Source of the DNA: a bacterium
Lineage (GTDB): Bacteria; Patescibacteriota; Doudnabacteria; UBA920
Assembly (NCBI GenBank): GCA_016699995.1
Contig: CP064996.1
Coordinates: 10,357 to 74,356 of the forward strand
DNA: 64,000 nucleotides
Direction: 5' to 3'
The translations under genes were made by a program, and so were the position numbers. Shown here piece by piece: positions 5,074 to 35,044 of this stretch. Numbering within the stretch: the stretch's first letter is position 1; each line of letters opens with the position of its first letter. The notes beneath the pieces are model-generated. The model saw nothing but the letters and a program-made list of their open reading frames with translations, searched no databases and was not told where the DNA came from.

Positions 5074-5102
5074 TTGATAAAATAATTAAAATGTGCTATA
5101 AT
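5074..5102 (+). promoter_or_regulatory. Sigma70-type promoter, TTGATA-17nt-TATAAT.
   Basis: TTGATA at 5074-5079, an exact 17-nt spacer, TATAAT at 5097-5102. The predicted TSS is about 5109. The ATG at 5091 lies inside the spacer. Confidence 0.6.
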
Positions 5103-5177
5103 AACTATAAGTTAAAACTTGTAGTTAGCACTAAAGCTAACGTGACTGAAACAAAAATACAATTTAATATAAAAAGC

Positions 5178-8100
5178 TTGCAAACAAAACCAAAAAACAT
5201 TTTGGAGTCGCTTTATAAATACAAATACTTAACCTTTGTAGGGGTTTTTGTATTTGTTGGCCTGCTCGCGTTTGGTAGTTTGGCAGGAAAAGCTTCGGCA
5301 GACACACAGGGGCCATATAGTACGACAAATGGTTACACAAACATTGTTGGATGTGGGGATAACGGTGATTGGAGTGATATTAACCAAGCAAGCGGTAGTG
5401 ATGATGCATACGCCAGCTCCAGCTTAAAGTCAGACTGGTGCAGTTACTTTTTATATTTAGATGGTTTTGGTTTTAATATTCCAGCCGGAGCGACTATTGA
5501 TGGTATCGAAGTGGGTATCGAAAGAAGAGCCGAGTTTGCTGGTGATTTAGTTGAGCAGTATGTGAGCATGCTCGATGCAGGATCACCTGTTGGCTCAAAC
5601 TATGCCGATTCAAATTACTGGCAAGATTATGACGATACTGTGTATTATGGTAGCTCCTCAGATTTATGGGGTAACAGCTGGAGTCCTGGAATGATTAATG
5701 ACACTGGTTTTGGTATTATATTGTATGCGCTGGCGGGTACAGAAGGCTCCGATGCATTCATCGACGATGTTTTTATAACTGTTCATTACACTCCCGCTAG
5801 TAATACTTGTCAATCTATTTCTAGTGGTAGTGGTAACTGGAATAGTGCTGGTACTTGGACTAACTGTGGCGGGGGAGTACCGGGGTCTGCGGATACAGCA
5901 ATCATTAATGGAACAGCTAATATTACAGTTACGGCCAGCACAACTGTTGCCAGTCTAAATTTTGGGACTACAGCCGCCGCGGCGACAAATGCCACTCTAA
6001 CGATTAATAGCTCGCAAACTTTAACTGTTACCGGTGTCACAACCATGACAGGCACGGCGGGAACGGCTACGCAGGGGACTGTTACTGGAAGCGGAACTTT
6101 GACGACCACCTATCTTTACATTGGTGCTGCCGTTACACCTTCGTCGACGGTGACAAATAAATTAATCTCTACGATTACCGCATTGAACGTTACTGGTTAC
6201 GTCACACTTAATGGTTATTCCAATGGCGGTAGTTACAACAACCCCGCTTTTGAAATACAGTCTGGTACTGCAGATATATGGGGGATTAATACCACCTTAG
6301 CTCATGCCAGCAATACTGCCACCATAAGCTTACAAACCGGTGCTCAATCGGGTACCCTTAAAATGAGCACTTCTTCTCCGTGGGTGATTAGCGGTACTGG
6401 TACCACAACTACTAGTTTAAACGGTACCACCAGCACCGTGGAGTACTCCGGACTTAACCAAACTTTTTTAAATACTACTTATAAAGGACTTAAAGTGAGT
6501 GGTAACGCGGGGACAACTGCTCAGAATGTAACGGTTTCTGGAGTTTTAAATGTGACTGGTACACTAAGCCCGTCATCTGGAACAATAGTACTGTCTGGTA
6601 CCGGCACTCCGTTAACTGTTTCTGGTACTTTTAATCCTTCCACTACCAGCGTTGTTCAGTACACAGGTTCAACAGCCACAGTTACTGCAACAACTTTTAA
6701 TACTTTAACGGTTGGTGGTACTGGCACCTATACGTTCCCAGCCAGTGGGTGGACCATTAAACGCAATCTTACTATTACATCTGGTGCAACTGTCACTAAG
6801 GGTGCAGGAACAATAACTTTTAACACAGCAGGTCAAAACTGTACGATCACTGGTAATGCAACCAACAGTGATTTAGGAACTATTTCTATCGGTAATGGTT
6901 CGGAAGCAAAATCTTGTGGGTTGGGCAGCTCAGTAAAATTTACGGCAGTGACGATTACAACTGGAGCTGGGTTGGATATGGTCAGTAGTTATACTATGAC
7001 CCTAACTGGCTCTGGTACGCCATTAACTGCAACTGGCGCCTTTACTAAAGCTACAGGTACTGTTGAATACACTTCTGCTTCAGGAGTAACTGCATTGTCG
7101 TCCGTTGCTATGACTAGCTCGAAAAGTTATTATAACTTGATCATCAACGGCAGCGGAACTTTCTCTATGGGATCTGCTTTTGATGTAGCCAATGATTTAA
7201 CCGTAACTTCTGGAACATTATCTAGTTCTGCTAGTACCACTACTAATGGGGTAGTGAGTGTAACTGGCACGATGACATATGCTGGATCCTCTACCTTTAC
7301 TCATAGTACAACATCTTCTAAAAACTTTGGCGGTAACGGCAATCTGAGTTTCTATGCCCTCACGTTTAGCGGTGGGGGAGGTACTACAGTAGCAACCGGC
7401 TCAGGAACTGTCACAGTAACAAATGTTTTAACCAATAGCCATGCTTTTAATGCTGGTAGTAAGACATGGATTCTAACAGGCTCAGGTACGCCGTTTAGCG
7501 GTGGGATTGATACACCGGGTACTTCTACTTTTAGCTATCGTAGTACAACTGGAGCCACGGTCAATAGTAACATTACTTATAATAACTTAGATATCTCTCC
7601 TGCCTCGGGAACTAACCCAACTTTTTTGGTTAATGCGACTAATAAGACCATAAATGGAAACTTAACAGTTTCTGGTGTTTCAGGAACATCGTTGAATTAT
7701 AATAATATCGTTTCTTATCTAATTTTAGGTGGAAATTTAACTATTAATGCGGGCAACACGCTCGTCGCACCGCCAAGCGGAGCGACATTTACAATTGCTG
7801 GCAGTCTAGCTAACTCCGGAACTTTTACTCACAACAGTGGTAATATAACTTTCAGCTCAACTTCTACAGGCAGAACCATCGCTACAAACGGCAGCTCGTT
7901 GAATAATGTTATTTTCAATGGTGCTGGCGGTGGTTGGTCTCCCAGCGGTGGCGCCATGACCTTAGCAGGGGATTTGACCATGACTGCGGGAACGCTTTCT
8001 GGCTCCCAAAACGTAACAGTAAATGGCGGTGATGTAACAGGTAACGGCACGATTAACATGAGTAGCGGTACTTTCTTAGTAGACGGTACCTCGGGCACTG

Positions 8101-11100
8101 GCTTTGGTGGTAGCACTAACTGGACGTTTAGTGCCTTAACCTTTGGGGATGGTAGTGGTAGTACTACTATCAGCTCGACTGGTAGTGGTAGTATTACTAC
8201 TTCGACTCTTACCATAGCAGCTAGCCAGACTTATAACGCAGGTGCAAAAACTTATGTTTTATCAGGCACTGGCACGCCATTAACCGTTACGGGAACCTTT
8301 AATTCGGAATCCAGCACTGTTCAGCATACTGGCGCAACAGCTACGGTTAGAGCAACAACTTATTACACTTTGCATTTGGGAATCAGTAGTGGTACCTACA
8401 CTATGCCCTCTACGACCATAACCATAAAAGGTAATTTAGTTATTCCTAGCGGCGTAACTGTAACCAAAGGCGCAGGTACAATTGTTTTTTCTGGAACTGG
8501 TAATCAACTCATCACTGATAGTAATGATACAAAGCAAGATCTAGGTGCGGTGCAAATTTCTAATACAGCCGATAACTGGTGCTCTGCTGGACAATGTAAT
8601 TACAATTGGCTAAGTCGCCGTAAAATTACTTTTAATAACTCTGATTTGAGTGGTAATTTAACAAACTTTCCAGTATTGGTTTCTTTAACTGGGCTTACAA
8701 TTGATTACGCTAAAACCAAAAACTCCGGTGAAGACATTCGGTTTGTAGATCCCGACGGTACTGTGTTGAATCATGAAATCGAAAAATGGGATGAGTCTGG
8801 CACCTCTTTGGTTTGGGTGAAAATCCCAACATTGAGCAATAATGCGACTGACTACGTTTACATGTACTACAATAACCCCCAGGCTGTAGATATTCAAGCG
8901 CCTACAAATGTTTGGGATAGTAATTATAAAGCAATTTATCACTTGCCAAACGGAACGACTTTGAGGGCTCTAGACTCCACTGGTGTAAATAATGCAAATA
9001 TTACATCAGCAACAGCAACAACTGGAAAAGTTGGTGGGGGAGCTAGTTTTAATGGTACTTCCGCTAAAATAATTGCTCCAGCTACTTCAAGTTTAGATGT
9101 CAGCTCTGGTGCTGGAATTACTGTTGATGGATGGTTTAATCCTACCGACATGACTGGTATGAGACCTTTAATAGAATGGGGAAATAGTGGCGCGTATGGT
9201 GTTCATATGTGGAATTATCCATCAAGCGGGAAAATTTATGTGAATGTTGTTGAGTCCAATGGAGCTAATCATACTTTTCAAACAACAGGGACCCCTTTGA
9301 CTCTTAGTACTTGGCAACATGTTGCTTTTACCTACAATAAATCCACTGGTGCGGTTGCCTTGTATTATAACGGGGTAGCCCAGTCTTTGGACACAGGAAA
9401 CATCGGTGCATTTACACCTAAGACTAACCTCGATTTCAATATCGGACATCGGCCGAATACTGGTGGAGTGTATTATTATAATGGATCTCAGGACGAAATT
9501 AGAGTCTCGAATGTTGTGCGAACAGCCGACTGGATGAAGGCTTCATATAACTCTTCGAACAGTAGTATGAATAGTTTTGGCAGCGAAGAGGTTTATGGTG
9601 GCACGAGCGTGGCCATGGGGTCGCCCTTAAAAATGACTAGCCTGACTATAGATTCTGGCAGAACTTTTGGAGTTAATGGTTCCAATACCCTAACCTTAAC
9701 AGGCAATGGAGCTTCGGTATTTGTAGTCTCTGGCAACTTTATTGCCTCTACAGGTACTGTTGAGTATGTGTCCACGGCCACAACCGGAACGACTGTAGCT
9801 TCTACAACTTATTATAATTTAGTAGTTAACAGGGCTAGTAATACTTTTACCATGCCAGGAGAAATGTACGTTAATAATAATTTTACTATCAGTGCCGGCA
9901 ACTTCTCCATCACAGCAGAATCATTAATTTTGGGTGGGGACTTCACAAACAATGGTACTTTTACACCAAATGAGGGTAGTGTTGTTATGCAGCCGTTAAA
10001 TAGTACAAAAACATCACAGATTTTAGGTTCATCAAATACATCACTTGGTTACTTCCAAGCGATGACCCCGGGGAGTACTATTAAATTCCAAGCCGGACGA
10101 ACATATACTTGGCTTGAGCTAACAGTTGTAGGGTCTGAAGCAGAACCCGTTACATTTTCTAGTACTTCAGCTGGTTCGCAGTGGAATGTAACTTTGACAG
10201 ACACAAATTACATTCAATACTTAAGAGTAAAGGATAGTGCCTGTGTAGGTGACACGTATACTTTTCCAAGGGACAATCCTGATTTATACAACTTAGGTAA
10301 TAATGGTACTTGCTGGGGGTTTATTGTTCAGGTTGATCCTGGTGGTCCTAGCGGTGGTGGTTCTGGATCAAGTGGAGCTTCTAGTTCGACCTCTCAAATC
10401 TTTACAACTTCTGGAACATGGACTGCTCCAGTGGGGATCACATCTGTAGATGTTGAAGTATGGGGCGGCGGTGCAGGCGGTTCTTACTACGGTGGCGGCG
10501 GCGGAGGCGGTGGAGCATATTCCAGAAAAAATTCTATAACAGTAACTCCGTTTAGTACTTATACGGTCACAGTCGGTGCTGGCGGCAACGAGGCAGTCGG
10601 TGGTGACTCTTGGTTCCTTTCTACGGGGACAGTCTTAGCCAAAGGCGGTAGTTTGGGAGTATATGGTTTTGGGGGCGGCGGTCCGCCATGTACTGGTGGT
10701 ACTGGTGGGGCAACAGCTGCCGGAGTTGGTGATGTTAAGTATGCTGGAGGAAACGGTGGTACAGGCCAGTGTTATGGTGGTACTGGTGGCGGCGGTGGTG
10801 CAGGTGCTAGTAGTACTGCAAATGGCGCTAATGGTAGTGGCACAACTGCTGGTGCAAGTTCTGGACAAGGCGGCCGGGGTGGTACCGGTTCTGGGTTTGA
10901 TATATCTCCTCCTGCTGGTAGTTGGGGTGAAGCCATTGGCGGCGGTGGCGGCGGTTGGACATGGTATGAACCTTCTATTCATCCTCGAGGTGCTCGCGGA
11001 GAGGTGCGAATTTACTATAACGGTGCTGGTGGTGGTAGTGGCGGTAGTGGTAGTTCGGGTGGTAGTGGCGGTAGTGGTGGTGGAAGCAGTTGTACAACCA

Positions 11101-11357
11101 CAGCAACGGGTACGGTAGACATGGAAAACGATAGGGTTGCTGGTGTGACTATAGTTTGTGGTGGCTCAGGCTACTCTTCGGCTCCCACAGTGACTTTCAT
11201 TGGCGGCGGCGGTAGCGGCGCATCTGCTACAGCTGTATTAACCAACGGAGTCGTAACTTCCGTGACTATTAATTCAGGCGGCGAGGGGTACGATTTACCT
11301 TCAGTCACATTCTCTGCACCTGGCCAAGGTGGCGGCGGCGGCGGAGCTTCTCCTTAG
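5178..11357 (+). CDS. Giant secreted surface protein of about 2060 aa. It has a signal peptide, roughly 80-aa Thr/Gly repeats, a DUF2341-like plus LamG/ConA-like core, and a glycine-rich C-terminus with tandem terminal repeats. The start is assigned to the in-frame TTG at 5178; the alternatives are GTG 5142 and TTG 5202.
   Basis: Single 2088-codon frame. The signal peptide is YKYKYLTFVGVFVFVGLLAFGSLAGKASA|DTQ. The repeated module reads 'SGTGTPLTV(S/T)GTF..ST..VQ(Y/H)TG.TATV.ATT(F/Y).TL..G..GTYT.P....I...L.I.SG.TVTKGAGTI.F'. The DUF2341-like segment reads 'FPVLVSLTGLTIDYAKTKNSGEDIRFVDPDGTVLNHEIEKWDESGTSLVWVKIP...YVYMYYNN'. The LamG-like segment reads 'GGASFNGTSAKIIAP...GITVDGWFNP'. The Gly-rich block reads 'TTSGTWTAPVGITSVDVEVWGGGAGG...GGGGGGGAYS'. 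Confidence 0.8.
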   Translation: MQTKPKNILESLYKYKYLTFVGVFVFVGLLAFGSLAGKASADTQGPYSTTNGYTNIVGCGDNGDWSDINQASGSDDAYASSSLKSDWCSYFLYLDGFGFNIPAGATIDGIEVGIERRAEFAGDLVEQYVSMLDAGSPVGSNYADSNYWQDYDDTVYYGSSSDLWGNSWSPGMINDTGFGIILYALAGTEGSDAFIDDVFITVHYTPASNTCQSISSGSGNWNSAGTWTNCGGGVPGSADTAIINGTANITVTASTTVASLNFGTTAAAATNATLTINSSQTLTVTGVTTMTGTAGTATQGTVTGSGTLTTTYLYIGAAVTPSSTVTNKLISTITALNVTGYVTLNGYSNGGSYNNPAFEIQSGTADIWGINTTLAHASNTATISLQTGAQSGTLKMSTSSPWVISGTGTTTTSLNGTTSTVEYSGLNQTFLNTTYKGLKVSGNAGTTAQNVTVSGVLNVTGTLSPSSGTIVLSGTGTPLTVSGTFNPSTTSVVQYTGSTATVTATTFNTLTVGGTGTYTFPASGWTIKRNLTITSGATVTKGAGTITFNTAGQNCTITGNATNSDLGTISIGNGSEAKSCGLGSSVKFTAVTITTGAGLDMVSSYTMTLTGSGTPLTATGAFTKATGTVEYTSASGVTALSSVAMTSSKSYYNLIINGSGTFSMGSAFDVANDLTVTSGTLSSSASTTTNGVVSVTGTMTYAGSSTFTHSTTSSKNFGGNGNLSFYALTFSGGGGTTVATGSGTVTVTNVLTNSHAFNAGSKTWILTGSGTPFSGGIDTPGTSTFSYRSTTGATVNSNITYNNLDISPASGTNPTFLVNATNKTINGNLTVSGVSGTSLNYNNIVSYLILGGNLTINAGNTLVAPPSGATFTIAGSLANSGTFTHNSGNITFSSTSTGRTIATNGSSLNNVIFNGAGGGWSPSGGAMTLAGDLTMTAGTLSGSQNVTVNGGDVTGNGTINMSSGTFLVDGTSGTGFGGSTNWTFSALTFGDGSGSTTISSTGSGSITTSTLTIAASQTYNAGAKTYVLSGTGTPLTVTGTFNSESSTVQHTGATATVRATTYYTLHLGISSGTYTMPSTTITIKGNLVIPSGVTVTKGAGTIVFSGTGNQLITDSNDTKQDLGAVQISNTADNWCSAGQCNYNWLSRRKITFNNSDLSGNLTNFPVLVSLTGLTIDYAKTKNSGEDIRFVDPDGTVLNHEIEKWDESGTSLVWVKIPTLSNNATDYVYMYYNNPQAVDIQAPTNVWDSNYKAIYHLPNGTTLRALDSTGVNNANITSATATTGKVGGGASFNGTSAKIIAPATSSLDVSSGAGITVDGWFNPTDMTGMRPLIEWGNSGAYGVHMWNYPSSGKIYVNVVESNGANHTFQTTGTPLTLSTWQHVAFTYNKSTGAVALYYNGVAQSLDTGNIGAFTPKTNLDFNIGHRPNTGGVYYYNGSQDEIRVSNVVRTADWMKASYNSSNSSMNSFGSEEVYGGTSVAMGSPLKMTSLTIDSGRTFGVNGSNTLTLTGNGASVFVVSGNFIASTGTVEYVSTATTGTTVASTTYYNLVVNRASNTFTMPGEMYVNNNFTISAGNFSITAESLILGGDFTNNGTFTPNEGSVVMQPLNSTKTSQILGSSNTSLGYFQAMTPGSTIKFQAGRTYTWLELTVVGSEAEPVTFSSTSAGSQWNVTLTDTNYIQYLRVKDSACVGDTYTFPRDNPDLYNLGNNGTCWGFIVQVDPGGPSGGGSGSSGASSSTSQIFTTSGTWTAPVGITSVDVEVWGGGAGGSYYGGGGGGGGAYSRKNSITVTPFSTYTVTVGAGGNEAVGGDSWFLSTGTVLAKGGSLGVYGFGGGGPPCTGGTGGATAAGVGDVKYAGGNGGTGQCYGGTGGGGGAGASSTANGANGSGTTAGASSGQGGRGGTGSGFDISPPAGSWGEAIGGGGGGWTWYEPSIHPRGARGEVRIYYNGAGGGSGGSGSSGGSGGSGGGSSCTTTATGTVDMENDRVAGVTIVCGGSGYSSAPTVTFIGGGGSGASATAVLTNGVVTSVTINSGGEGYDLPSVTFSAPGQGGGGGGASP

Positions 11358-26431: not shown

Positions 26432-26842
26432 ATGAAGAAGTTGAGCAATAAATTGGAGTTTTTAATGAATTTATCCAAAGCACAGGCAATTATTTCCAGA
26501 AAATTGCACGGACAGGGATTGGGTTTTGGTGATTTGGTGGTGTTAAATGCAATCAGCCAGGCGGACGGTGGAAAAATTCGTCGCGTAGATTTGGCCGAAC
26601 AGGTGGGCCTAACTGCCTCCGCTGTAACCCGTATACTCATACCGTTAGAAAAGATCGGTGTAGTTAAGCGCGAGAGCGGCGAGCATGATGCGCGAGTCGG
26701 GTACACTAGCCTCACTACTGCCGGAAAAGAACTATTCGAAGACACTATAAAGTGGACCAGCTTAAAATGTGAGGATCTGCTGTCGGGTCAGAATGAAAAG
26801 GATCTTGCGCAAATGTCCGAAGTACTGAAGACTATTAGCTAA
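26432..26842 (+). CDS. MarR family transcriptional regulator.
   Basis: Winged-helix 'DLVVLNAISQADGGKIRRVDLAEQVGLTASAVTRILIPLEKIGVVKRE'. Confidence 0.75.
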   Translation: MKKLSNKLEFLMNLSKAQAIISRKLHGQGLGFGDLVVLNAISQADGGKIRRVDLAEQVGLTASAVTRILIPLEKIGVVKRESGEHDARVGYTSLTTAGKELFEDTIKWTSLKCEDLLSGQNEKDLAQMSEVLKTIS

Positions 26843-26862
26843 ATATTAATTTAAGCAATGTT

Positions 26863-27297
26863 ATGAAAATACATGAATTAGGCCATGTTGTGTTGTATGT
26901 TACAGATTTAGAACGGTCAGCCAGTTTTTATAAAGATATATTGGGTTTCCGTCAGATTGCGCGTCGTACTGGGATGGCGATTTTTTCCGGAGGCAGGACT
27001 CACCATGAAATGCTATTAATCGAAGTTGGCGGTGAGGTGCGTGCTAAAGGAGTTGAGCCTGGGCTTTATCATATCGGGTTTAAGATAGGCGATTCGCCTC
27101 AGGATATAAAGGATGCCTACCGGGAATTAGTTGCTAAGGGTGTGCAGATAATCGGGGCTACCGATCACCATGTTACTCACAGTTTGTATATAATGGATCC
27201 AGACGGTAACGAGTTAGAGCTGTACGCCGATGTTAACGACGAATGGAAAACTGATCCTGAAGCTGTATTGGCGCCGCCTAAACCCCTAGCCTTGTAG
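26863..27297 (+). CDS. VOC / glyoxalase-bleomycin resistance family protein.
   Basis: 'LGHVVLYVTDLERSASFYKDILGF' is the VOC beta-alpha-beta-beta-beta start. Confidence 0.75.
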   Translation: MKIHELGHVVLYVTDLERSASFYKDILGFRQIARRTGMAIFSGGRTHHEMLLIEVGGEVRAKGVEPGLYHIGFKIGDSPQDIKDAYRELVAKGVQIIGATDHHVTHSLYIMDPDGNELELYADVNDEWKTDPEAVLAPPKPLAL

Positions 27298-27343
27298 GGG
27301 TTTTTTGGTTATAATTCTAAAATCATTAAGTTATTATCCCAGA

Positions 27344-28348
27344 ATGGAAAAAGAGAATGCAATAGTTATAGAGAACTTAACCAAATCTTATAAAGACGTG
27401 GAGGTTCTTAAAGGAGTTAACTTGGCAGTAGAAAAGGGCACTATGCTGGCTCTGCTTGGCCCGAATGGTGCCGGAAAAACTACTATCGTTAGAATCCTTT
27501 CGACCTTGCTGAGCAAGGATGGCGGCAATGTTAAGGTGAACGGTTACGACGTAGATAAGGACAGCTCCAGGGTACGTGAAAGCATCGGTTTGACCAGCCA
27601 GTATGCTGCACTGGACGAATTTTTGTCTGGCCGCGAAAATTTAATTATGATGGGACGTTTGTTTAAGCTCAGTAAGGAAGACGCCAAGAAGCGTGCCCAG
27701 CAGTTATTGGAGCAATTTGATCTAGTGGACGCAGCAGAACGAGCAGTAAAAACTTATTCTGGCGGTATGAAGCGTCGTTTGGACTTGGCTGTAAGCTTAA
27801 TTCCAACCCCACCGATTATTTATTTGGACGAACCAACTACTGGACTCGACCCGCGCAGCCGTTTGGCGATGTGGGATGTGATAAAAAAGCTGGTAGAAGC
27901 TGATGTAACCATTTTGCTTACCACACAGTATCTTGAGGAAGCCGATCAGTTGGCAGATAAAATTGCCGTAATCGACGGTGGTAAAGTCATTGCCGAAGGA
28001 ACGGCGGATGAGCTCAAGAAAAGTGTTGGGACTGAGCGCTTAGAGCTTGTCTTAAAGACTCCAGAGGATTTTAACAAAACTGCGGATGTGATGAATGGTT
28101 ACAGTTTGCAAAAGAACGAGAAGAATCACAGCGTGAGTGTAGCCGTGAGTGATGGTGTGGGTGAAATTTCCAAAATCTTGCAGCTATTGCAGAGCAATAA
28201 TGTGTCGATCGACTCGTTATCGCTTCATAAGCCGACCCTGGACGATGTATTTATGCAATTAACAGGGCATCATGCCGAAATGCCTGGAGAAGAAAGCGAA
28301 GAAGATACGGGTTCTGCCGGGAGCGCAACACAGAAAGGAGCTAAATAA
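27344..28348 (+). CDS. ABC transporter ATP-binding protein, ABC-2/DrrA-like.
   Basis: Walker A GPNGAGKTT, signature LSGGMKRRLDLA, Walker [13 protein letters not shown]. Confidence 0.9.
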   Translation: MEKENAIVIENLTKSYKDVEVLKGVNLAVEKGTMLALLGPNGAGKTTIVRILSTLLSKDGGNVKVNGYDVDKDSSRVRESIGLTSQYAALDEFLSGRENLIMMGRLFKLSKEDAKKRAQQLLEQFDLVDAAERAVKTYSGGMKRRLDLAVSLIPTPPIIYLDEPTTGLDPRSRLAMWDVIKKLVEADVTILLTTQYLEEADQLADKIAVIDGGKVIAEGTADELKKSVGTERLELVLKTPEDFNKTADVMNGYSLQKNEKNHSVSVAVSDGVGEISKILQLLQSNNVSIDSLSLHKPTLDDVFMQLTGHHAEMPGEESEEDTGSAGSATQKGAK

Positions 28349-28349
28349 C

Positions 28350-29195
28350 ATGACACAATCACACGAACACTTGGAGACACTACAAGACACAGCTTTTGTA
28401 GGAACTATTAAGCCGCAGAAGCACTCTGCTGTTGGAGGCGTCTTAAATGACGCCTGGGTTTTCATCTTACGCAGCTTAAAGCTGATCTTTAAGAGCCCGG
28501 ATCAATTGATCGGCTTGATTGTCCAGCCGATTATGTTTATGCTCCTATTCCGCTATGTGTTTGGCGGGGCGATTAACACCGGCAGTACCAGTTACGTAAA
28601 CTTTTTAGTGGCTGGTATCTTGGTGCAAATGGCAGCTTTCGGCGCATTGACTACGTCTTTTTCTGTGGCAATTGACATGCAGAAGGGTGTTATTGACCGG
28701 CTTAAGTCTTTTCCGATTGCCAGCTGGGCTGTATTGGTCGGCCACGTAGTCGGTGACTTGGTGCGCAACGTATTGTCTTCTCTAATTTTGATAGGCGTGG
28801 CGATGGTGGTTGGGTTTCGGCCGAACGCCGGTGTTAAGGAATGGATCTTGATTACACTGATAGTCTTGTTGTTTACCTTTGCCGTATCGTGGGTGTCTGC
28901 CATCTTAGGGTTGATTGCTAAGACCGTAGAGGCTGTGCAGTGGATGGGGTTCTTCCTAGTTTTTCCGCTAACATTCGCCAGCGCTGCATTTGCGCCAACA
29001 GAAACTATGGCCAAGGGTATTCGCGTGTTTGCCCAGAACCAGCCTGTGACTCATGTAATCGAAGCGATTCGCGCATTGATGATTGGCACTCCGATCGGGA
29101 ATCACGCCACGCTTGCAGTTATTTGGTGCGTGGGAATTATAGTAGTGGCTATTCCTTTGGCTGCCTATCTATTTAAAAAACAAATTACAAAATAA
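28350..29195 (+). CDS. ABC-2 family transporter permease.
   Basis: About 6 TM helices. ATG 28350 follows AAAGGAG and is separated by 1 nt from the ATPase stop, so the two genes are translationally coupled. Confidence 0.8.
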   Translation: MTQSHEHLETLQDTAFVGTIKPQKHSAVGGVLNDAWVFILRSLKLIFKSPDQLIGLIVQPIMFMLLFRYVFGGAINTGSTSYVNFLVAGILVQMAAFGALTTSFSVAIDMQKGVIDRLKSFPIASWAVLVGHVVGDLVRNVLSSLILIGVAMVVGFRPNAGVKEWILITLIVLLFTFAVSWVSAILGLIAKTVEAVQWMGFFLVFPLTFASAAFAPTETMAKGIRVFAQNQPVTHVIEAIRALMIGTPIGNHATLAVIWCVGIIVVAIPLAAYLFKKQITK

Positions 29196-29305
29196 TTATT
29201 TTCTGATCTCAAGAATACCTTTGACAGAAAGTGTTTTTTCTTTACCAAAAGTCGAGTACTTATTAAAGCCATCTTGAACACACTTGTGTAAATATTACTT
29301 TACGT

Positions 29306-29377
29306 GGGCTGGGCCAGTAGTGGTAGAAATGGATCACCACCCTTTCGTAGCGGGTGCAACTCCCGTCCAGTCCGCCA
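29306..29377 (+). ncRNA. tRNA-like element or degenerate tRNA, 72 nt. It has a 7-bp acceptor, a T-arm and an encoded GCCA, but no recognisable anticodon arm.
   Basis: GGGCUGG pairs with CCAGUCC (one G-U). The T-stem GCGGG/CCCGU carries loop UGCAACU. The element ends G-CCA. The D-like region is 'CC-AGUAGUGGUAGAA-AUGG'. No 5+7+5 anticodon hairpin can be formed. Confidence 0.35.
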
Positions 29378-29605
29378 CTCTTGTAAGAGAGTTCATATGC
29401 ATGGTATGATATGCATGGTGATCCGTTTCTAGAAAGCCACTGATGGCTCGAAACAAAGCCGCCCAGACGGGCGGCTTTCACTTATCCACTTGCGCGGTGC
29501 TTAGGCTGATGGTATCTTTATAAAAATGCGTAGTCACATAAACAACTTCAACCGCATTCCACGAGCGGGGCAGCAATTGTCTCCGCGAGTAATATTTAGT
29601 TTCTA

Positions 29606-29630
29606 ACTTCCCGTTTGGGAAGTTTTTTTA
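29606..29630 (+). terminator. Rho-independent terminator.
   Basis: ACTTCCC / GGGAAGT form a 7-bp stem with loop GTTT, followed by TTTTTTT. Confidence 0.75.
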
Positions 29631-29672
29631 TAAGTAACGAACTGTTAGTTTTTAATCCGGCACATAGTTATT

Positions 29673-30563
29673 ATGTCTGGCGGCGACCGACAGTTCGGAG
29701 AAAGAAAGCATATGATTAATAACTATCGAGGAGCCGAAGATTCCGTCCTCTATAGCCAGGTAGTAACCAAGCTGCGCCAGTTCTTTTTGCAGCGGGGATA
29801 TACCGAGGTCCATACTCAGGACCGCTTGAGCATTTTGGCGGCCTGCGAAGATCCCTCGACTATTGCCACCTTTAACTATGGTGGGGAATTGTGGCCATTG
29901 CCGCAGACTGGCCAGATGTGGCTTGAATATGAGTTGTTAACAAAGCCGGAATTGCCCGGCGTTTTTTGTGTCTCTACCAGTTACCGCAACGAACCGAATC
30001 CGATCCCTGGACGGCATAAAATTTTGTTTCCGATGTTTGAGTTCGAGTCGCGCGGGTCTATAGATGATTTGCGCAAGCTGGAAGAAGACATGTTGGTGCA
30101 CTTAGGATTTGGTTTGCCGGGCACCTTCGTTCATAAAACGTATGACGCTATGGCTAATTTTTACGGGACCTCAGACTTAATGAGCGCGCATGAAAATAAT
30201 ATGAAGATCGACTTTGGCAATGTCGTCTTCCTCGAACGTTTCCCGCAGCATACTTCACCCTTTTGGAATATGAAGAAAGATGGTGATTATGCCAACAAGA
30301 TTGATGTGATAATTAATGGTCAGGAAACTATAGGCAGTGCCGAACGTAGCACTAACCCAGAAGAAATGCGCGAATTATTCCATACAATCAGCGAAGGCGA
30401 CTATGCCGGCAAGCTTTATGATTTATTTGGAAAAGAGAGGGTAGAGAAGGAACTGGAAGAATTTTTATCTCTTGATTTCTTCCCGCGATTTGGTGGCGGC
30501 ATAGGGTTAACCCGATTAATGAGCGCCATGGCGGAGTTGCAAAAAGTTCCTGTAATGCAATAA
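29673..30563 (+). CDS. Class-II aaRS-like catalytic-core protein, consistent with an archaeal-type asparagine synthetase A (AsnRS paralog).
   Basis: Motif 2 'YRNEPNPIPGRHKILFPMFEFE' and motif 3 'GGGIGLTRLMSAM'. About 290 aa with no anticodon-binding domain. Possible alternative start at ATG 29712. Confidence 0.5.
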   Translation: MSGGDRQFGERKHMINNYRGAEDSVLYSQVVTKLRQFFLQRGYTEVHTQDRLSILAACEDPSTIATFNYGGELWPLPQTGQMWLEYELLTKPELPGVFCVSTSYRNEPNPIPGRHKILFPMFEFESRGSIDDLRKLEEDMLVHLGFGLPGTFVHKTYDAMANFYGTSDLMSAHENNMKIDFGNVVFLERFPQHTSPFWNMKKDGDYANKIDVIINGQETIGSAERSTNPEEMRELFHTISEGDYAGKLYDLFGKERVEKELEEFLSLDFFPRFGGGIGLTRLMSAMAELQKVPVMQ

Positions 30564-30792: not shown

Positions 30793-31059
30793 ATGCAACG
30801 AGCCAAGATGCCAGATAAGGCGTATAGATTTTTTCTCCAGCAGTATTGCGGGGTTCTAGAGTTTTTTGAATACCGCGACGTGATTTTGATTACTGCAAAT
30901 GGCGAACCCAAAGCATTTTGTCCAAGAAAGGAATTACTTAATTGGGAAAAGCTAGGTACACCTTTGGAACAACAGCATAACCAAATCAGGGCCCGATCTT
31001 CTGAATTCGAAAACGAATCCTGGTTGGAGAAGAGGCCGTTACGGGTATGCCCCTGTTAA
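30793..31059 (+). CDS. Hypothetical small protein.
   Basis: 88-aa ORF supported only as an open frame. Confidence 0.2.
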   Translation: MQRAKMPDKAYRFFLQQYCGVLEFFEYRDVILITANGEPKAFCPRKELLNWEKLGTPLEQQHNQIRARSSEFENESWLEKRPLRVCPC

Positions 31060-31130
31060 TTCAAAGTTGTTTAAAGAGGAGCTTCGCAAACCGTCGAAAG
31101 GCGCTTTCGATTTAGGTTGATATGAAATAA

Positions 31131-31157
31131 ACCGCACCATGTACAGTGCGGTTTTTA
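31131..31157. terminator. Bidirectional intrinsic terminator.
   Basis: ACCGCAC / GTGCGGT form a 7-bp stem with an 8-nt loop, AAATAA upstream and TTTTTATTAT downstream. Confidence 0.65.
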
Positions 31158-31163
31158 TTATGT

Positions 31164-32603
31164 TTACGTTGCAGGCACAGGTTCTGGATTATTCGGCTTG
31201 TCTTTGAGCATATAAGACAAGATCGGCGGCGTGAGCAGGGTGGTAAGGATAACCATGATCAGGATTACAGAGAATACGGTATCTGGAACCACGCCCAGCT
31301 GTTTGCCGATGGTGGCAAAGATCAGTCCTACCTCGCCTCGAGGCACCATTCCGAATCCGACCAAAGATTTACTCACCTTGCCGGCAACTGCACCGGCGAT
31401 AATCTTTCCGGCAAAAGCCGCAATGGTAATGCCTAGCCCTGCTAGCAGGATCTTAGGATCAAATAGGGTTTCCAAGTTTACGCTCATACCTGTCATCACG
31501 AAAAACACAGGAACTAGGAACACTGCAACCGGCTCTATCAGCTCTTCGATATGCTTGTCGCTGTGATGCTTGGCTTTAGCTAACAACTTTTCTTTATGAC
31601 TGTCATCGCTGGAAGATTCCGCATACTTGGCAAGGTCGGCCGCTGCAGCTGGCTTGGAGAAATAGTCAAAATGGACCGGGTCCAATACCAGACCGGCGGC
31701 AAAGGCTCCCACAATTGGAGCCAGACCGATTAGTCCGGCCAGCGCGGCAAATACCAAAGCAAAACTTATGGCGATAGTAAACTTCATGCCAATTCCGGTA
31801 TGGATCTTGGACATGAACTTTCCTATATATGGAGCTATCAACTGTCCGACCACTATTGCTCCAACCAGGAAAGCGAGAGACTTTCCAAATATAATAGCCA
31901 CCGTGGCTAAACTCACACTACCGGATGACACCAATGCAGAGACTACTGCCAGGATGATTAATCCAATAACATCGTCGATCACAGCCGCACCTAAAACAAT
32001 CTTTGCTTCTGAGGTGTTAAGCTTGCCCATATCCTTAAAGACCCGTGCGGTAATACCTACGGAAGTTGCTGTGAGAGCTGCTCCTAAAAAGAGGTAAGTG
32101 TTATTCTCGAGACCTGGCAACAGCCATGGGCCGACCACCCAGGTTCCTAAAACGAACGGGGCTACGACTCCAACGATAGCAACTAAAAAAGCGCGCCATC
32201 CTACTTTACGCATCTCAGAAATGTTAGATTCTAACCCAACCTGAAACAGCAAGATGATTACACCAAGCTCCGCTAGGAATGGAAGAAAGGTGTCCGTTTT
32301 GATCGGATCAAACAGATGGATTCCCACCAGCGCTAAATTTCCCAAGACGATACCGATGATCAGTTCTCCTAATACTGCCGACTGCCCGAACCGTTCTACT
32401 AAGCTTGCCAGCTTCGCTGCTATCAAGATTACTGCCAGCCATAACAAAGTCATTACAGCTCCGTGGGCTCCGCCTTCACTCCCGCCTCCGGCAGCTTGCA
32501 CAACAGGGGATAGTGCCAAAATTATAAGTCCCATAAAAGCGATGAACTTAACGCGCAGTTTGGGCAAATTGAAGTTCGGCAGATTCAGAATGTTTTGCAA
32601 CAT
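31164..32603 (-). CDS. Cation:proton antiporter, CPA2 / Na+/H+ exchanger family.
   Basis: 479 aa with 12-13 TM helices and typical Kef/NhaP-like Gly-rich TM segments. Confidence 0.7.
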   Translation of the reverse strand: MLQNILNLPNFNLPKLRVKFIAFMGLIILALSPVVQAAGGGSEGGAHGAVMTLLWLAVILIAAKLASLVERFGQSAVLGELIIGIVLGNLALVGIHLFDPIKTDTFLPFLAELGVIILLFQVGLESNISEMRKVGWRAFLVAIVGVVAPFVLGTWVVGPWLLPGLENNTYLFLGAALTATSVGITARVFKDMGKLNTSEAKIVLGAAVIDDVIGLIILAVVSALVSSGSVSLATVAIIFGKSLAFLVGAIVVGQLIAPYIGKFMSKIHTGIGMKFTIAISFALVFAALAGLIGLAPIVGAFAAGLVLDPVHFDYFSKPAAAADLAKYAESSSDDSHKEKLLAKAKHHSDKHIEELIEPVAVFLVPVFFVMTGMSVNLETLFDPKILLAGLGITIAAFAGKIIAGAVAGKVSKSLVGFGMVPRGEVGLIFATIGKQLGVVPDTVFSVILIMVILTTLLTPPILSYMLKDKPNNPEPVPAT

Positions 32604-32878
32604 AAATATTAAATTTTCCCTCCGACTTAATTGGATATTAATTTTTCGACTAAAGTATTGTAGCTGAGCAGGGTATTTTTTTCAATCTACTTTGTAAGGA
32701 GTATTAATTATCACGCAGGTTACTATCTATTGGGCAGGACGTAAAAGTAACTGGAATATCCTGTTAGGGAATAACAATAAATATATATTGACAAACGATA
32801 AATAGGCATTTATACTAATATCGGTTAATTACATGTTTACTAAGTTTATTCAAAATTAATTTTTTTATTCGGATACTT

Positions 32879-33346
32879 ATGAAGAAGGGTTCAACTTTGT
32901 TTCTTAAGCTGGTTATCATTTTTATGGGCTTAGTGGCTCTGGGGGTGATTGGGGTCGCTATACCTATCGCCTTTATAACGGGCGAACGCACGAATGAATA
33001 CGTGCCGTTTTGGATTCTGATTTATCTAACAGCCATCCCGTTTTTTATGGCCTTATTAGAAGGAATGAGATTGTTAGGTTTCATCGATAAAAATACTGCC
33101 TTTTCCAATAATTCTGTGGCAGCCCTGGGTAAGATTAAAATTTATGCCATCGTAATGACCGTATTGTATTTAGCATGCTTGCCATGGGTGTTTAAAGCAG
33201 CGGATGCGGATGATTCTCCTGGTATGGTTTTAATGTGGACCGCATTTAGCTGTGCTCCACTCGTGATCGCCGTGTTTGCGGCATTGTTAAAAACTTTGCT
33301 TAAGAATGTGATCGATATCAAAGCAGAAAATGATCTAACTGTTTAA
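32879..33346 (+). CDS. DUF2975-like small membrane protein, partner of a YozG-type regulator.
   Basis: 155 aa with 4 TM helices, located immediately upstream of the HTH gene. Confidence 0.45.
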   Translation: MKKGSTLFLKLVIIFMGLVALGVIGVAIPIAFITGERTNEYVPFWILIYLTAIPFFMALLEGMRLLGFIDKNTAFSNNSVAALGKIKIYAIVMTVLYLACLPWVFKAADADDSPGMVLMWTAFSCAPLVIAVFAALLKTLLKNVIDIKAENDLTV

Positions 33347-33354
33347 GGAGAAAT

Positions 33355-33564
33355 ATGGGAATTATTATCAACATCGATGTCATGCTGGCTAAAAGAAAGA
33401 TGAGCGTTACAGAGCTTACCGAAAAAGTGGGGATTACGATGGCAAATCTTTCTATTTTAAAGAATGGCAAGGCTAGAGCAATTCGATTTTCTACTCTGGA
33501 AGCGATCTGCAAGGCTCTGGATTGCCAGCCTGGAGACATTTTAGAATATAAAACTAAAAAATAA
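33355..33564 (+). CDS. Cro/C1-type HTH transcriptional regulator, YozG-like.
   Basis: 'MSVTELTEKVGITMANLSILKNGKARAIRFSTLEAICKALDCQPGDIL'. Confidence 0.8.
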   Translation: MGIIINIDVMLAKRKMSVTELTEKVGITMANLSILKNGKARAIRFSTLEAICKALDCQPGDILEYKTKK

Positions 33565-33577
33565 TTAACCAATAATT

Positions 33578-35044
33578 ATGAATTTTACGCTATCGAAAAC
33601 TCTATACACCTTACTGGCCAGCCTCGGCCTGGCCATAGTCTTTAACTTTTTGTTTTTTTACAACCAAGTGGGAATTTCGGTGTTTATTTTTGTGGCAGTC
33701 TTGCTTGGGGTGGTATTTGTGTTCGGCCGCAGCCAGCAGCTCGTAGCTAAGGATGCTCTGCAAAACAGCTGGTGGCTGATTGCGTTGATTGGGCTCTTTT
33801 CATTAATGCCGGCCGTAAGAGCGAACGGTTTTCTGGCATTCCTAAACATAGTAACTGTGTTTGGCCTGCTGATGGTGCTTGCATATCACTTAGTTGGCGT
33901 ACCGGCTTTCATGATGAAGCTGCGCGATTATGTAGTACTAGCTATGTTGGTGCCATTTAGGATGTTGGCTAGAATGTTTGCTTCCATCTCCTTTATCAGC
34001 CAAGTGCGCAGCAATGTAAAGCACCGCGACGTTTGGATCCGGGTACTTAAAGGCATAATCATGGCTGTGCCAGTTTTGATTGTATTTGCCCTGCTATTTT
34101 CTAATGCGGATTTGGCTTTTTCCCAATTTCTTAACAGCGTAATTGATATCCAGGTAGAAGAGGTGACTATGCAGTACCTGGCTTTGTTGGGTTTTGCTTT
34201 CATAGCCGGTTTGAGCTATTTGTCTTTTATTTTTTTCCCTAAGCCTCAGGCCAGCCCTATTGCGCAGCCAGCAGATAGTGCGGCTAAAGAAGGCAAGGCG
34301 GTCGAAGTAATGGTCTTTCTCGGCCTTATTGCTACTTTGTTTATAGTATTTATCGGCTTTCAGGTTACCTACTTATTTGGGGGAGAAGCTAATATCATCA
34401 ACGCGGGGTTTACTTACGCGGAATATGCCCGACGGGGTTTTTGGGAGTTACTGGCCGTATCTATCATATCCTTGGTTGTGTTGTTTGCGGCAGAAAAATA
34501 TTCTGGCAGCGAGCGAAAGCGACATAGCCGTTTTTTGGTCCCGGCTCTTATATTGATCGGTGAGGTGGTGATTATTATAGTTTCCGCGTTTAAGCGTCTG
34601 TCGCTATATATAGATGCTTATGGCATTACTACCCAACGTTTTTATGTGGCGAGCTTTATTGCTCTGCTGTTGGTGCTATTTGTATTGCTTGCTGTAAAAT
34701 TTGTCAGGTCCAAGCGTGAGCAATTTTTTTCTTTCGGTGCATTGCTAACCTTCGCTGGTTTTCTGGCTGTAATAAATATTATCAATCCTGACGGGTTCAT
34801 AATGAAGTCTAATATTAAGCATTATGAAAAAACCGGCAAGGTTGATGTTCTTTATACAGAAGAGCTTTCTGTTGATGCTCTGCCTTATAAGTTGGAACTG
34901 TACGACAGGCTCCATGGAGAAGAAAAGGAAGTGCTAAGGAATTCCATACTGAACCATAAAGCTGGGTTATCTAGTGGCAGCTCCGAGTGGCAGGCCGCAA
35001 ACCTTTCTCGATCTCAGGCCTTAAATATACTTAGAGATTTTTAG
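33578..35044 (+). CDS. Large polytopic membrane protein of unknown function.
   Basis: 488 aa with about 12 TM helices and a C-terminal soluble domain. It forms an operon with the HTH/DUF2975 pair. Confidence 0.55.
   Translation: MNFTLSKTLYTLLASLGLAIVFNFLFFYNQVGISVFIFVAVLLGVVFVFGRSQQLVAKDALQNSWWLIALIGLFSLMPAVRANGFLAFLNIVTVFGLLMVLAYHLVGVPAFMMKLRDYVVLAMLVPFRMLARMFASISFISQVRSNVKHRDVWIRVLKGIIMAVPVLIVFALLFSNADLAFSQFLNSVIDIQVEEVTMQYLALLGFAFIAGLSYLSFIFFPKPQASPIAQPADSAAKEGKAVEVMVFLGLIATLFIVFIGFQVTYLFGGEANIINAGFTYAEYARRGFWELLAVSIISLVVLFAAEKYSGSERKRHSRFLVPALILIGEVVIIIVSAFKRLSLYIDAYGITTQRFYVASFIALLLVLFVLLAVKFVRSKREQFFSFGALLTFAGFLAVINIINPDGFIMKSNIKHYEKTGKVDVLYTEELSVDALPYKLELYDRLHGEEKEVLRNSILNHKAGLSSGSSEWQAANLSRSQALNILRDF

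Follow-up and report, generated by a model that had tools for sequence, protein, structure and literature searches.

What occupies the 477-nucleotide gap (positions 29196-29672) between an ABC transporter operon and a synthetase-like gene in this 64,000-nucleotide stretch of a Patescibacteria genome, hereafter the window? The original prediction saw in it a single island of novel structured RNA, opening with a tRNA-like element, closing with a strong terminator, and followed by a gene starting at 29673. Our analysis points instead to a composite of two independent units, a reading to which we assign a probability of roughly 55%: unit A (29196-29480) would be a tRNA relic with its surroundings, and unit B (29482-29711) the conserved leader of the synthetase-like gene. 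The latter extends beyond the gap as first delimited, since the true start of the gene is the ATG at 29712 (MINNY...).

The division into two units comes from comparison with relatives. We collected 80 genomic loci carrying a relative of the synthetase-like gene, together with locus L081, whose protein is 93% identical to that of the window. When the whole gap was compared with these loci by BLAST, only its last approximately 190 nucleotides matched. The boundary is sharp: the alignment with L081 is random through position 29481, and identity is about 85-90% from the TTATCCAC box at 29482 onwards. No counterpart of 29196-29480 was found upstream of the synthetase-like gene in the 81 relatives, L081 included. 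The terminator of the original prediction does exist, at 29605-29631 (it had been placed at 29606-29630). Rather than ending a structured RNA gene, it lies with the last 190 nucleotides or so of the gap in a conserved promoter and leader region, where it would serve as an attenuator of the synthetase-like gene.

Unit B has a simple layout, entirely on the forward strand. Its first conserved position in the alignment with L081 belongs to a DnaA-box-like octamer, TTATCCAC (29482-29489), which is the only TTATCCACW in the window and abuts the -35 box of a sigma-70-type promoter (29490-29518; TTGCGC at 29490-95, a 17-nucleotide spacer and TATCTT at 29513-18) that is kept in L081 and in L001 to L004. 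A reading frame of 26 codons, MRSHINNFNRIPRAGQQLSPRVIFSF followed by a stop (29526-29606), then opens with an ATG at 29526, at the predicted transcription start. Because this AUG lies only seven nucleotides past the -10 box, the leader messenger is predicted to be leaderless. The last two bases of the stop codon, TAA at 29604-06, are also the first two of the terminator stem, and the terminator itself, AACUUCCC-GUUU-GGGAAGUU followed by seven U residues, shows compensatory changes within the window's subgroup. A small hairpin lies inside the frame (GCGGGGCA...UGUC(U)CCGC, 29565-29586); in an RNAalifold analysis of six relatives it comprises six pairs, two of them with compensatory changes. The ribosome-binding site of the synthetase-like gene, GGAG at 29697-29700, is found 65 nucleotides past the terminator. 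The NNFN of the window's leader peptide is not kept even in L081.

The same arrangement recurs widely. In 78 of 82 loci, a terminator-like hairpin with a U-run is present no more than 135 nucleotides from the start codon of the synthetase-like gene; the interval is often only 12-45 nucleotides, too little to accommodate a further promoter. In 52 of these 78 loci we identified a TTGnnn-16/18-TAnnnT promoter with an ATG or GTG located 5-10 nucleotides (mostly 8) past the -10 box. At the sequence level, the order is that of a leader-peptide attenuator: promoter, short frame, intrinsic terminator and gene, with no promoter in between. The reading frame is preserved, and its stop codon keeps a constant position, measured from the terminator in one class of leader and from a hairpin loop in the other.

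In the window-type class (26 loci), the frame opened by the predicted start never ends before the terminator (0 of 26), whereas the two other frames do so in 22 and 18 cases. Fourteen of the predicted frames stop at most six nucleotides from the stem base, ten run into or past the stem and two have no stop; the median open length is 25.5 codons, versus 4 and 7 in the other frames. The Saccharimonadia-like class (26 loci) has a shorter frame of 9-10 codons, MHKx[K/R]xxxA and a stop, with the stop codon in the apical loop of a hairpin, H1. Here TAA, TGA and TAG interchange at a single position. The stem sequences of H1 vary from locus to locus, and folding each sequence separately gave a mean z-score of -4.0, with 25 of 26 below -2; an alignment-based search of the same leaders (MAFFT and RNAalifold) returned the terminator only and did not recover H1.

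Leaders of the Saccharimonadia-like class (class A, among L021-L080) have a further feature. Their first ten nucleotides, AAUGCAUAAA, which include the AUG, pair with the ten nucleotides that follow the U-run, UUUAUGCAUU (columns 1-10 with 88-97 of alignment A3). Paired cells make up 90% of this closing helix, compared with 38-51% for slid controls, and an A-U pair is replaced by G-C in six sequences. In read-through transcripts, the closing helix would create a three-way junction hiding the AUG of the short frame. Such a 5'/3' helix is not consistently present in the window's own subgroup, as judged by inspection of the sequences.

Is this organization compatible with control by the ribosome? 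We consider it likely, on the sequence evidence above, that unit B is a ribosome-dependent transcription attenuator. The leader frame would be translated, probably from a leaderless or nearly leaderless messenger. With no ribosome on the leader, the terminator hairpin would form and transcription would stop; a ribosome positioned at the leader stop codon would cover the 5' strand of the terminator while it is being transcribed, and thus permit read-through. Expression of the enzyme would in that case depend on how translation and transcription are coupled, or on translational capacity. Precedents for the central step come from E. coli, where a terminator placed a few base pairs after a stop codon is reported to be almost completely repressed (PMC4824070), and from the reported role of coupling in the prevention of terminator hairpins (PMC5021804). 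In the Saccharimonadia-like class, the ribosome would open H1 and keep the closing helix from forming.

Several observations weigh against this interpretation. Promoters and starts were assigned by motif, and 26 of the 78 loci failed the strict motif rule. Because of the shared ancestry of the loci, the counts given above are not independent. In the Saccharimonadia-like class, the stop codon lies 25-30 nucleotides from the terminator, and simple masking by the ribosome does not apply. Finally, the K/R-rich beginning and the F/I/L-rich end of the peptide are explained by the purine-rich and pyrimidine-rich arms of a hairpin, and RNA structure, rather than coding, may constrain part of the sequence.

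An alternative is that unit B is not a translated attenuator. It would be a leader RNA that binds a ligand or a protein (acting as a riboswitch, or letting the enzyme regulate itself), or else an independent gene for a small RNA or small protein that happens to lie upstream. The structural conservation of H1, terminator and closing helix in the Saccharimonadia-like class, despite divergent or covarying stems, would suit such an RNA, and the N-terminal pattern M-[HCY]-K-x-R may just as well represent a motif of the RNA. However, loops and junctions differ between the two classes, so that no candidate ligand pocket emerges; the frame test favours translation, and the interchange of the three stop codons at one position argues in the same direction. 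In many loci, too few nucleotides separate terminator and start codon to accommodate a second promoter. Altogether, a leader or gene of this kind seems improbable to us.

How does unit B compare with known attenuators? Its logic is that of the E. coli pyrBI attenuator, with which it shares a short frame running up to or into an intrinsic terminator, where translation can keep the hairpin from forming, and a U-rich stretch before the terminator. Unit B differs from pyrBI in its predicted leaderless start (AUG at +1/+2), its synthetase-like target, its occurrence in Patescibacteria and the DnaA-box-like motif at its promoter. It also differs in having a second leader class, in which a frame of 9-10 codons ends in a hairpin loop and a closing helix sequesters the AUG. 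The pheST operon provides a precedent for synthetase genes under leader-peptide attenuation. The order of promoter, leader peptide, terminator and gene is likewise that of the trpL, pheL, pheM (pheST) and hisL attenuators, of which pheL is a described amino-acid leader-peptide attenuator (PMC3082878). Unlike these, unit B has no run of codons for a single amino acid, and we found no clear antiterminator alternative. No codon or residue is enriched in the leader peptides relative to the other frames, and we therefore discarded sensing of a single amino acid by the peptide. T-box leaders resemble unit B as terminator-containing leaders upstream of a synthetase-family gene. Unit B is only about 80-105 nucleotides long, with no Stem I, specifier or T-box sequence; RF00230 gave no match in the window leader (E <= 10) and none at the gathering score in 20 related loci, and the leader is too short for a T-box in any case. 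More generally, no Rfam family matched the leaders in 20 loci. We found no publication on this leader, and nothing relevant in the literature on tRNA-like RNAs and leader peptides in Patescibacteria or on this enzyme.

Three further observations concern the leaders and their surroundings. A DnaA-box-like octamer (TTATCCAC or GTGGATAA, sometimes TTTTCCAC) lies beside the -35 box, in either orientation, in 33 of 82 loci (L001-L020, L023, L028-L034, L045, L050, L051, L056, L062, L074 and L081), against a background of 0.047 per 300 nucleotides; it is absent from the Saccharimonadia-like class. Six loci (L005, L016, L019, L020, L023 and L029) have two tandem terminator-like hairpins between the leader frame and the gene start. 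Lastly, in about 30 of 80 loci a tRNA gene is present within 3 kb of the synthetase-like gene, tRNA-Lys (CUU/UUU) in Saccharimonadia-like loci and tRNA-Gln (UUG) in others (for example L035:3005-3080 and L017:3971-4045; range L004-L078). This closeness could reflect clade synteny or could be a functional hint.

The gene under this putative control (29712-30563, forward strand) encodes a 283-residue catalytic core of a class II aminoacyl-tRNA synthetase of the Asp/Asn/Lys subclass (IIb). As first proposed, the protein has no anticodon-binding domain: PF00152 is its only domain (3e-18). Residues R92 and E94 and the GxGxGxxR signature are invariant in the family (motifs 2 and 3 are conserved), and the protein is 65-93% identical across the sampled Patescibacteria lineages. 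The label 'AsnA-like', however, is not established, as PRK06462 scores 25 bits where 389 would be required. All the curated models for synthetases, AsnA and EpmA fall far below their cut-offs, with similarly low scores for AsnRS, AspRS, EpmA and LysRS. The AlphaFold2 (AF2) model has a confidence (pLDDT) of 87, and its nearest solved relatives, in sequence and in fold, are the catalytic domains of AsnRS and AspRS (TM-score about 0.75, 17-23% identity). Four family members (P0008, P0012, P0022 and P0112) are recorded as 'transposase' in public databases, a misannotation in view of their domain and predicted fold. Downstream of the gene, a small open reading frame, a Na+/H+ exchanger, a DUF2975 and a DUF4153 protein (30793-35044) separate it from a PLD-like gene; the same two genes are adjacent in L081 (1273-1305), which implies an insertion or deletion of about 4.4 kb.

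What, then, is the tRNA-like element of unit A? It spans 72 nucleotides (29306-29377, forward strand), and the parts first described for it are all present in the sequence. The acceptor strands GGGCTGG (29306-12) and CCAGTCC (29367-73) form seven pairs out of seven, including G3:U70; the T-arm GCGGG/TGCAACT/CCCGT (29350-66) has five pairs out of five and directly abuts the 3' acceptor strand; a discriminator G (29374) and an encoded CCA (29375-77) follow. The 37 nucleotides between the 5' acceptor strand and the T-arm contain a D-loop-like AGUAGUGGUAGA (AGU.GG.UAGA motif) and a degenerate anticodon region. The T-loop, UGCAACU, has a G at position 55, a variant that we also encountered in the tRNA-Cys genes of L089 and L090.

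We measured how rare such a combination is by defining a tRNA frame as a 7-bp acceptor whose 3' strand abuts a 5-bp T-stem with a seven-nucleotide loop (U.C.A), followed by NCCA. Over both strands of the window, this frame has three matches: a tRNA-Glu, a tRNA-Leu and the element. In 200 Markov-random 64-kb windows it occurred once in all (mean 0.005), and this rarity leads us to consider the element as derived from a tRNA, as the original prediction had suggested among other options. The window's own tRNAs likewise encode their CCA.

The element is nonetheless neither a standard tRNA nor a transfer-messenger RNA (tmRNA), again in agreement with the original prediction. ARAGORN made no tRNA or tmRNA call with default, 80% or 70% thresholds or in mitochondrial mode. 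Rfam gave no match at the gathering score, and none to RF00005 or tmRNA at E <= 10; 6S, SRP, RNase P, Y RNA and T-box models did not match either. The sole Rfam match on the element at E <= 10 is RAGATH-21 (RF03097; 19.6 bits, E = 0.71). This family shares with the element an outer stem capped immediately by a hairpin, whose loop in the family is UGCAAUU, and the weak alignment is full-length. We rejected membership, given a score far under the gathering threshold of 70.3 and a mismatch in the internal hairpins.

The sequence allows two incomplete cloverleaves, the first with a D-arm (CCAGU/AAUGG, a single mismatch) but lacking an anticodon arm, the second with an anticodon-like arm (GAAAUGG/CCCUUUC, again a single mismatch, with loop AUCACCA and U33) but lacking a D-stem. 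As the two arms are mutually exclusive, a full cloverleaf is out of reach. The statement that no anticodon arm can form should therefore be softened, since an imperfect one is possible at the cost of the D-stem. Folded alone, the 75-nucleotide tRNA-like piece is unremarkable, with an energy of -26.8 kcal/mol and a z-score of -1.35.

A scan of metagenomes for the combination of T-arm, acceptor and CCA returned five places, all of them real tRNA genes or arrays. Two are genuine tRNA-Cys(GCA) genes (L089 and L090) with the same unusual T-arm, CGGGUGCAACUCCCG. The element is collinear with them and of near-tRNA length; its acceptor and T-arm hardly differ from theirs, and about half of the interior is the same. 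The sole difference in the acceptor concerns pair 3:70, C-G in these tRNA-Cys genes and G-U in the element, a change requiring two substitutions. The three other places are copies of one dense tRNA array, which contains an uncalled tRNA-like gene with an acceptor identical to that of the element, an Ala-type anticodon loop (CUGGCAG) and a discriminator A. Dense metagenomic arrays (L087:207-364, L088:1585-2318 and L091:278-1011; L087, the one measured, has 62% GC) contain several tRNA-like genes that escape both ARAGORN and Rfam, with an odd D region (CAUGUUCC), a UGCAA T-loop and an encoded CCA; one of these genes has the acceptor of the element and an Ala-type anticodon loop.

Relatives of the element proper are missing wherever we looked. 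An uncalled tRNA frame with CCA was found near the synthetase-like gene in none of 86 Patescibacteria loci. Given this result and the boundary at 29482, a functional link between the element and the synthetase-like gene, raised as pure speculation in the original prediction, is not supported. The three closest homologues of the upstream permease (75-77% identity) are immediately followed by other genes, and similar DNA is absent there, so that, for these three, we dismissed the idea that the element accompanies the ABC operon. No match to the element was found in E. coli genomes, in phage records or in five IMG/VR pattern scans, which led us to discard a phage or plasmid origin; the lone IMG/VR match, L082, is a chance GC hairpin. 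The original prediction named a lack of transcription together with a lack of conservation in related genomes as grounds for abandoning a novel structured RNA; on conservation this reading fails, since the tRNA-like part has no homologue in any relative examined, the search having covered, of the 943-kb source genome, the window.

The surroundings of the element include a structure absent from the original list of features. This is an imperfect inverted repeat of 29 and 34 nucleotides, with its left arm at 29311-29339, over the D/anticodon region of the element, and its right arm at 29416-29449. Its core of 16 nucleotides is fully paired as RNA (16/16, one G-U), and the minimum free energy fold lengthens the pairing. 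In other words, the decayed bottom half of the element has been duplicated, in inverted orientation, 76 nucleotides downstream. The resulting 139-nucleotide hairpin (29311-29449) competes with the tRNA-like fold, and encloses the T-arm hairpin, a small hairpin directly 3' of the CCA (CTCTTGTAAGAGAG, CUCUUGUAAGAGAG; 29378-29391) and a tandem direct repeat. The whole region (29300-29485, 186 nucleotides) has a minimum free energy of -81.4 kcal/mol, with a z-score of -5.8 on the forward strand and -4.7 on the reverse strand.

The direct repeat was already part of the original prediction, as a 14-mer at 29397-29422; it actually consists of ATATGCATGGT occurring twice with a 14-nucleotide period (29395-29405 and 29409-29419). 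Each copy contains the palindromic hexamer ATGCAT, which is also present at the 5' end and in the post-terminator segment of class A leaders, a resemblance that is probably coincidental. Similarly, the GC-rich hairpin AAAGCCGCCC/GGGCGGCTTT, written AAAGCCGCCC-AGAC-GGGCGGCUUU, is real and lies at 29455-29478 rather than 29466-29487. It is the probable terminator, of the bidirectional type, of the upstream operon, and closes the non-conserved unit; a comparable terminator stands immediately ahead of the TTATCCAC box in L003. The 72-residue open reading frame on the reverse strand (29263-29481) has no Pfam match and a sequence unlike a protein, and was rightly held to be spurious.

The element thus lies 110 nucleotides behind the permease stop codon and ahead of the 29455-78 hairpin, in the 3' untranslated region of the efflux operon (26432-29195). 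This operon comprises, on the forward strand, a MarR-family regulator (26432-26842), a glyoxalase/bleomycin-resistance protein (26863-27297), an ABC ATPase (27344-28348) and an ABC-2 permease (28350-29195), all identified with Pfam/NCBIfam and with starts preceded by ribosome-binding sites. We put at even odds that the element is a lineage-specific tRNA relic, or pseudo-tRNA, caught within a large hairpin, and not a conserved RNA gene. At most, it may act as a processing or stability aid at the end of the operon transcript. It resembles tRNA pseudogenes and relics in its 72-nucleotide length with CCA, acceptor, T-arm and D-loop-like AGU.GG.UAGA, and in its collinearity with tRNA-Cys. It is unlike them in that decay is confined to the D/anticodon half, all 12 pairs of the top half being intact, and in that the decayed half is duplicated in inverted orientation downstream.

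Which parent gave rise to such a relic? The best tRNA alignments are with tRNA-Cys (23-25.5, versus a background of 11 +/- 7), and these genes were partly chosen by the same search pattern. Because scores against 83 tRNAs stay within background, no parental isoacceptor can be named; Cys, Ala and Val-like tRNAs are candidates. This lack of a clear parent counts against a relic, as do several other points. The seven acceptor pairs and five T-stem pairs are intact while the interior is degenerate, which could mean selection on the top half. G3:U70 is the identity pair of AlaRS, which recognises it independently of the anticodon. A weak promoter, TTGAAC-16 nt-TACTTT, noticed by eye and not found by the scanner, would start transcription at about 29307-09. 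In addition, our tests of absence were confined to syntenic places and strict exact patterns and, within the source genome, to the window.

Several of these observations also speak for a functional tRNA-like RNA. RNase P and 3' trimming would release it from the operon transcript, or from a transcript of its own weak promoter; it would end in CCA and could be charged by AlaRS through G3:U70. The element might otherwise be a processing signal for the 3' end of the messenger. The intact top half with its U.C.A T-loop and encoded CCA, the two substitutions needed to turn the 3:70 pair of tRNA-Cys into G-U, and a possible promoter that ends five nucleotides before the element would all fit. Such an RNA would recall the tRNA-like domain of tmRNA and alanine minihelices, which share with the element the acceptor/T-arm stack, G3:U70, the 3' CCA and the lack of an anticodon. 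However, no homologue was found wherever we searched; the discriminator is G, whereas tRNA-Ala and tmRNA have A; the cloverleaf-like fold is much less stable than its competitor, the 139-nucleotide hairpin; and no SmpB, tag frame or other partner is encoded nearby. We regard a functional tRNA-like RNA as unlikely.

A second alternative starts from the 139-nucleotide palindrome (29311-29449), which could be a small non-autonomous mobile or repeat element, or the product of template switching. It would now act as a bulky hairpin at the 3' end, stabilising the operon transcript or ending it, and the likeness to tRNA would be left over from its landing site. The length of its arms and the strong z-scores on both strands are consistent with this idea. 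The arms differ at three places, two of which still allow a G-U pair, on the forward strand only. However, the arms have no further copy in the window (about 7% of the 943-kb genome) or in viral contigs, no target-site duplication is visible at the ends of the palindrome, and the tRNA frame reaches past it (29306-10). This reading of the palindrome is, in our opinion, improbable.

Far less plausible is a tRNA top half still in use, with no anticodon, either transcribed from its own weak promoter or freed from the operon RNA by RNase P. Ending in CCA and carrying G3:U70, it could be charged by AlaRS or be used as acceptor by the neighbouring synthetase-like enzyme, itself devoid of an anticodon domain, while the downstream complementary arm would switch it between the tRNA-like and hairpin folds.

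Finally, an attachment-site scar of a mobile element using tRNA genes, or an unusual or permuted tmRNA, can hardly be defended: the tRNA-like 3' end with its CCA and the adjacent, cargo-like efflux cassette are suggestive, but there is no integrase, transposase or phage gene within about 10 kb and no direct repeat of the 3' half (the lone match, at 3-19, has E = 0.63 and is no better than chance), a scar would keep the 3' part only whereas both acceptor strands are present, and ARAGORN in tmRNA mode and the Rfam tmRNA clan detect nothing in an element whose acceptor strands are 54 nucleotides apart, both within 72 nucleotides, with a discriminator G, no mRNA-like domain or pseudoknots, and, on inspection of the downstream sequence, no Ala-resume or ...LAA-type tag frame. 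The integration scar, one of the options of the original prediction, was rejected on these grounds.

Elsewhere in the window, we noted a single open reading frame of 2088 residues at 5091-11357 on the forward strand.

If the element is indeed a lineage-specific relic, it is probably a dead end, and its lesson is one of caution: acceptor, T-arm and CCA can survive in sequence that does not form a conserved gene. The leader of the synthetase-like gene is the more interesting of the two units, as it would represent a new form of a known type of control, in a group for which almost no regulation has been described. Patescibacteria have reduced genomes with few known regulators and are mostly uncultured, and the synthetase-like enzyme is near-universal and very conserved among them. 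If our interpretation of unit B is confirmed, these bacteria would offer a clear example of attenuation that depends on the ribosome, with a start that is probably leaderless, and the DnaA-box-like motif at the same promoter provides a second regulatory lead. Attenuation of this kind would also give a handle on when the cell needs the synthetase-like enzyme, and hence a clue to its role.

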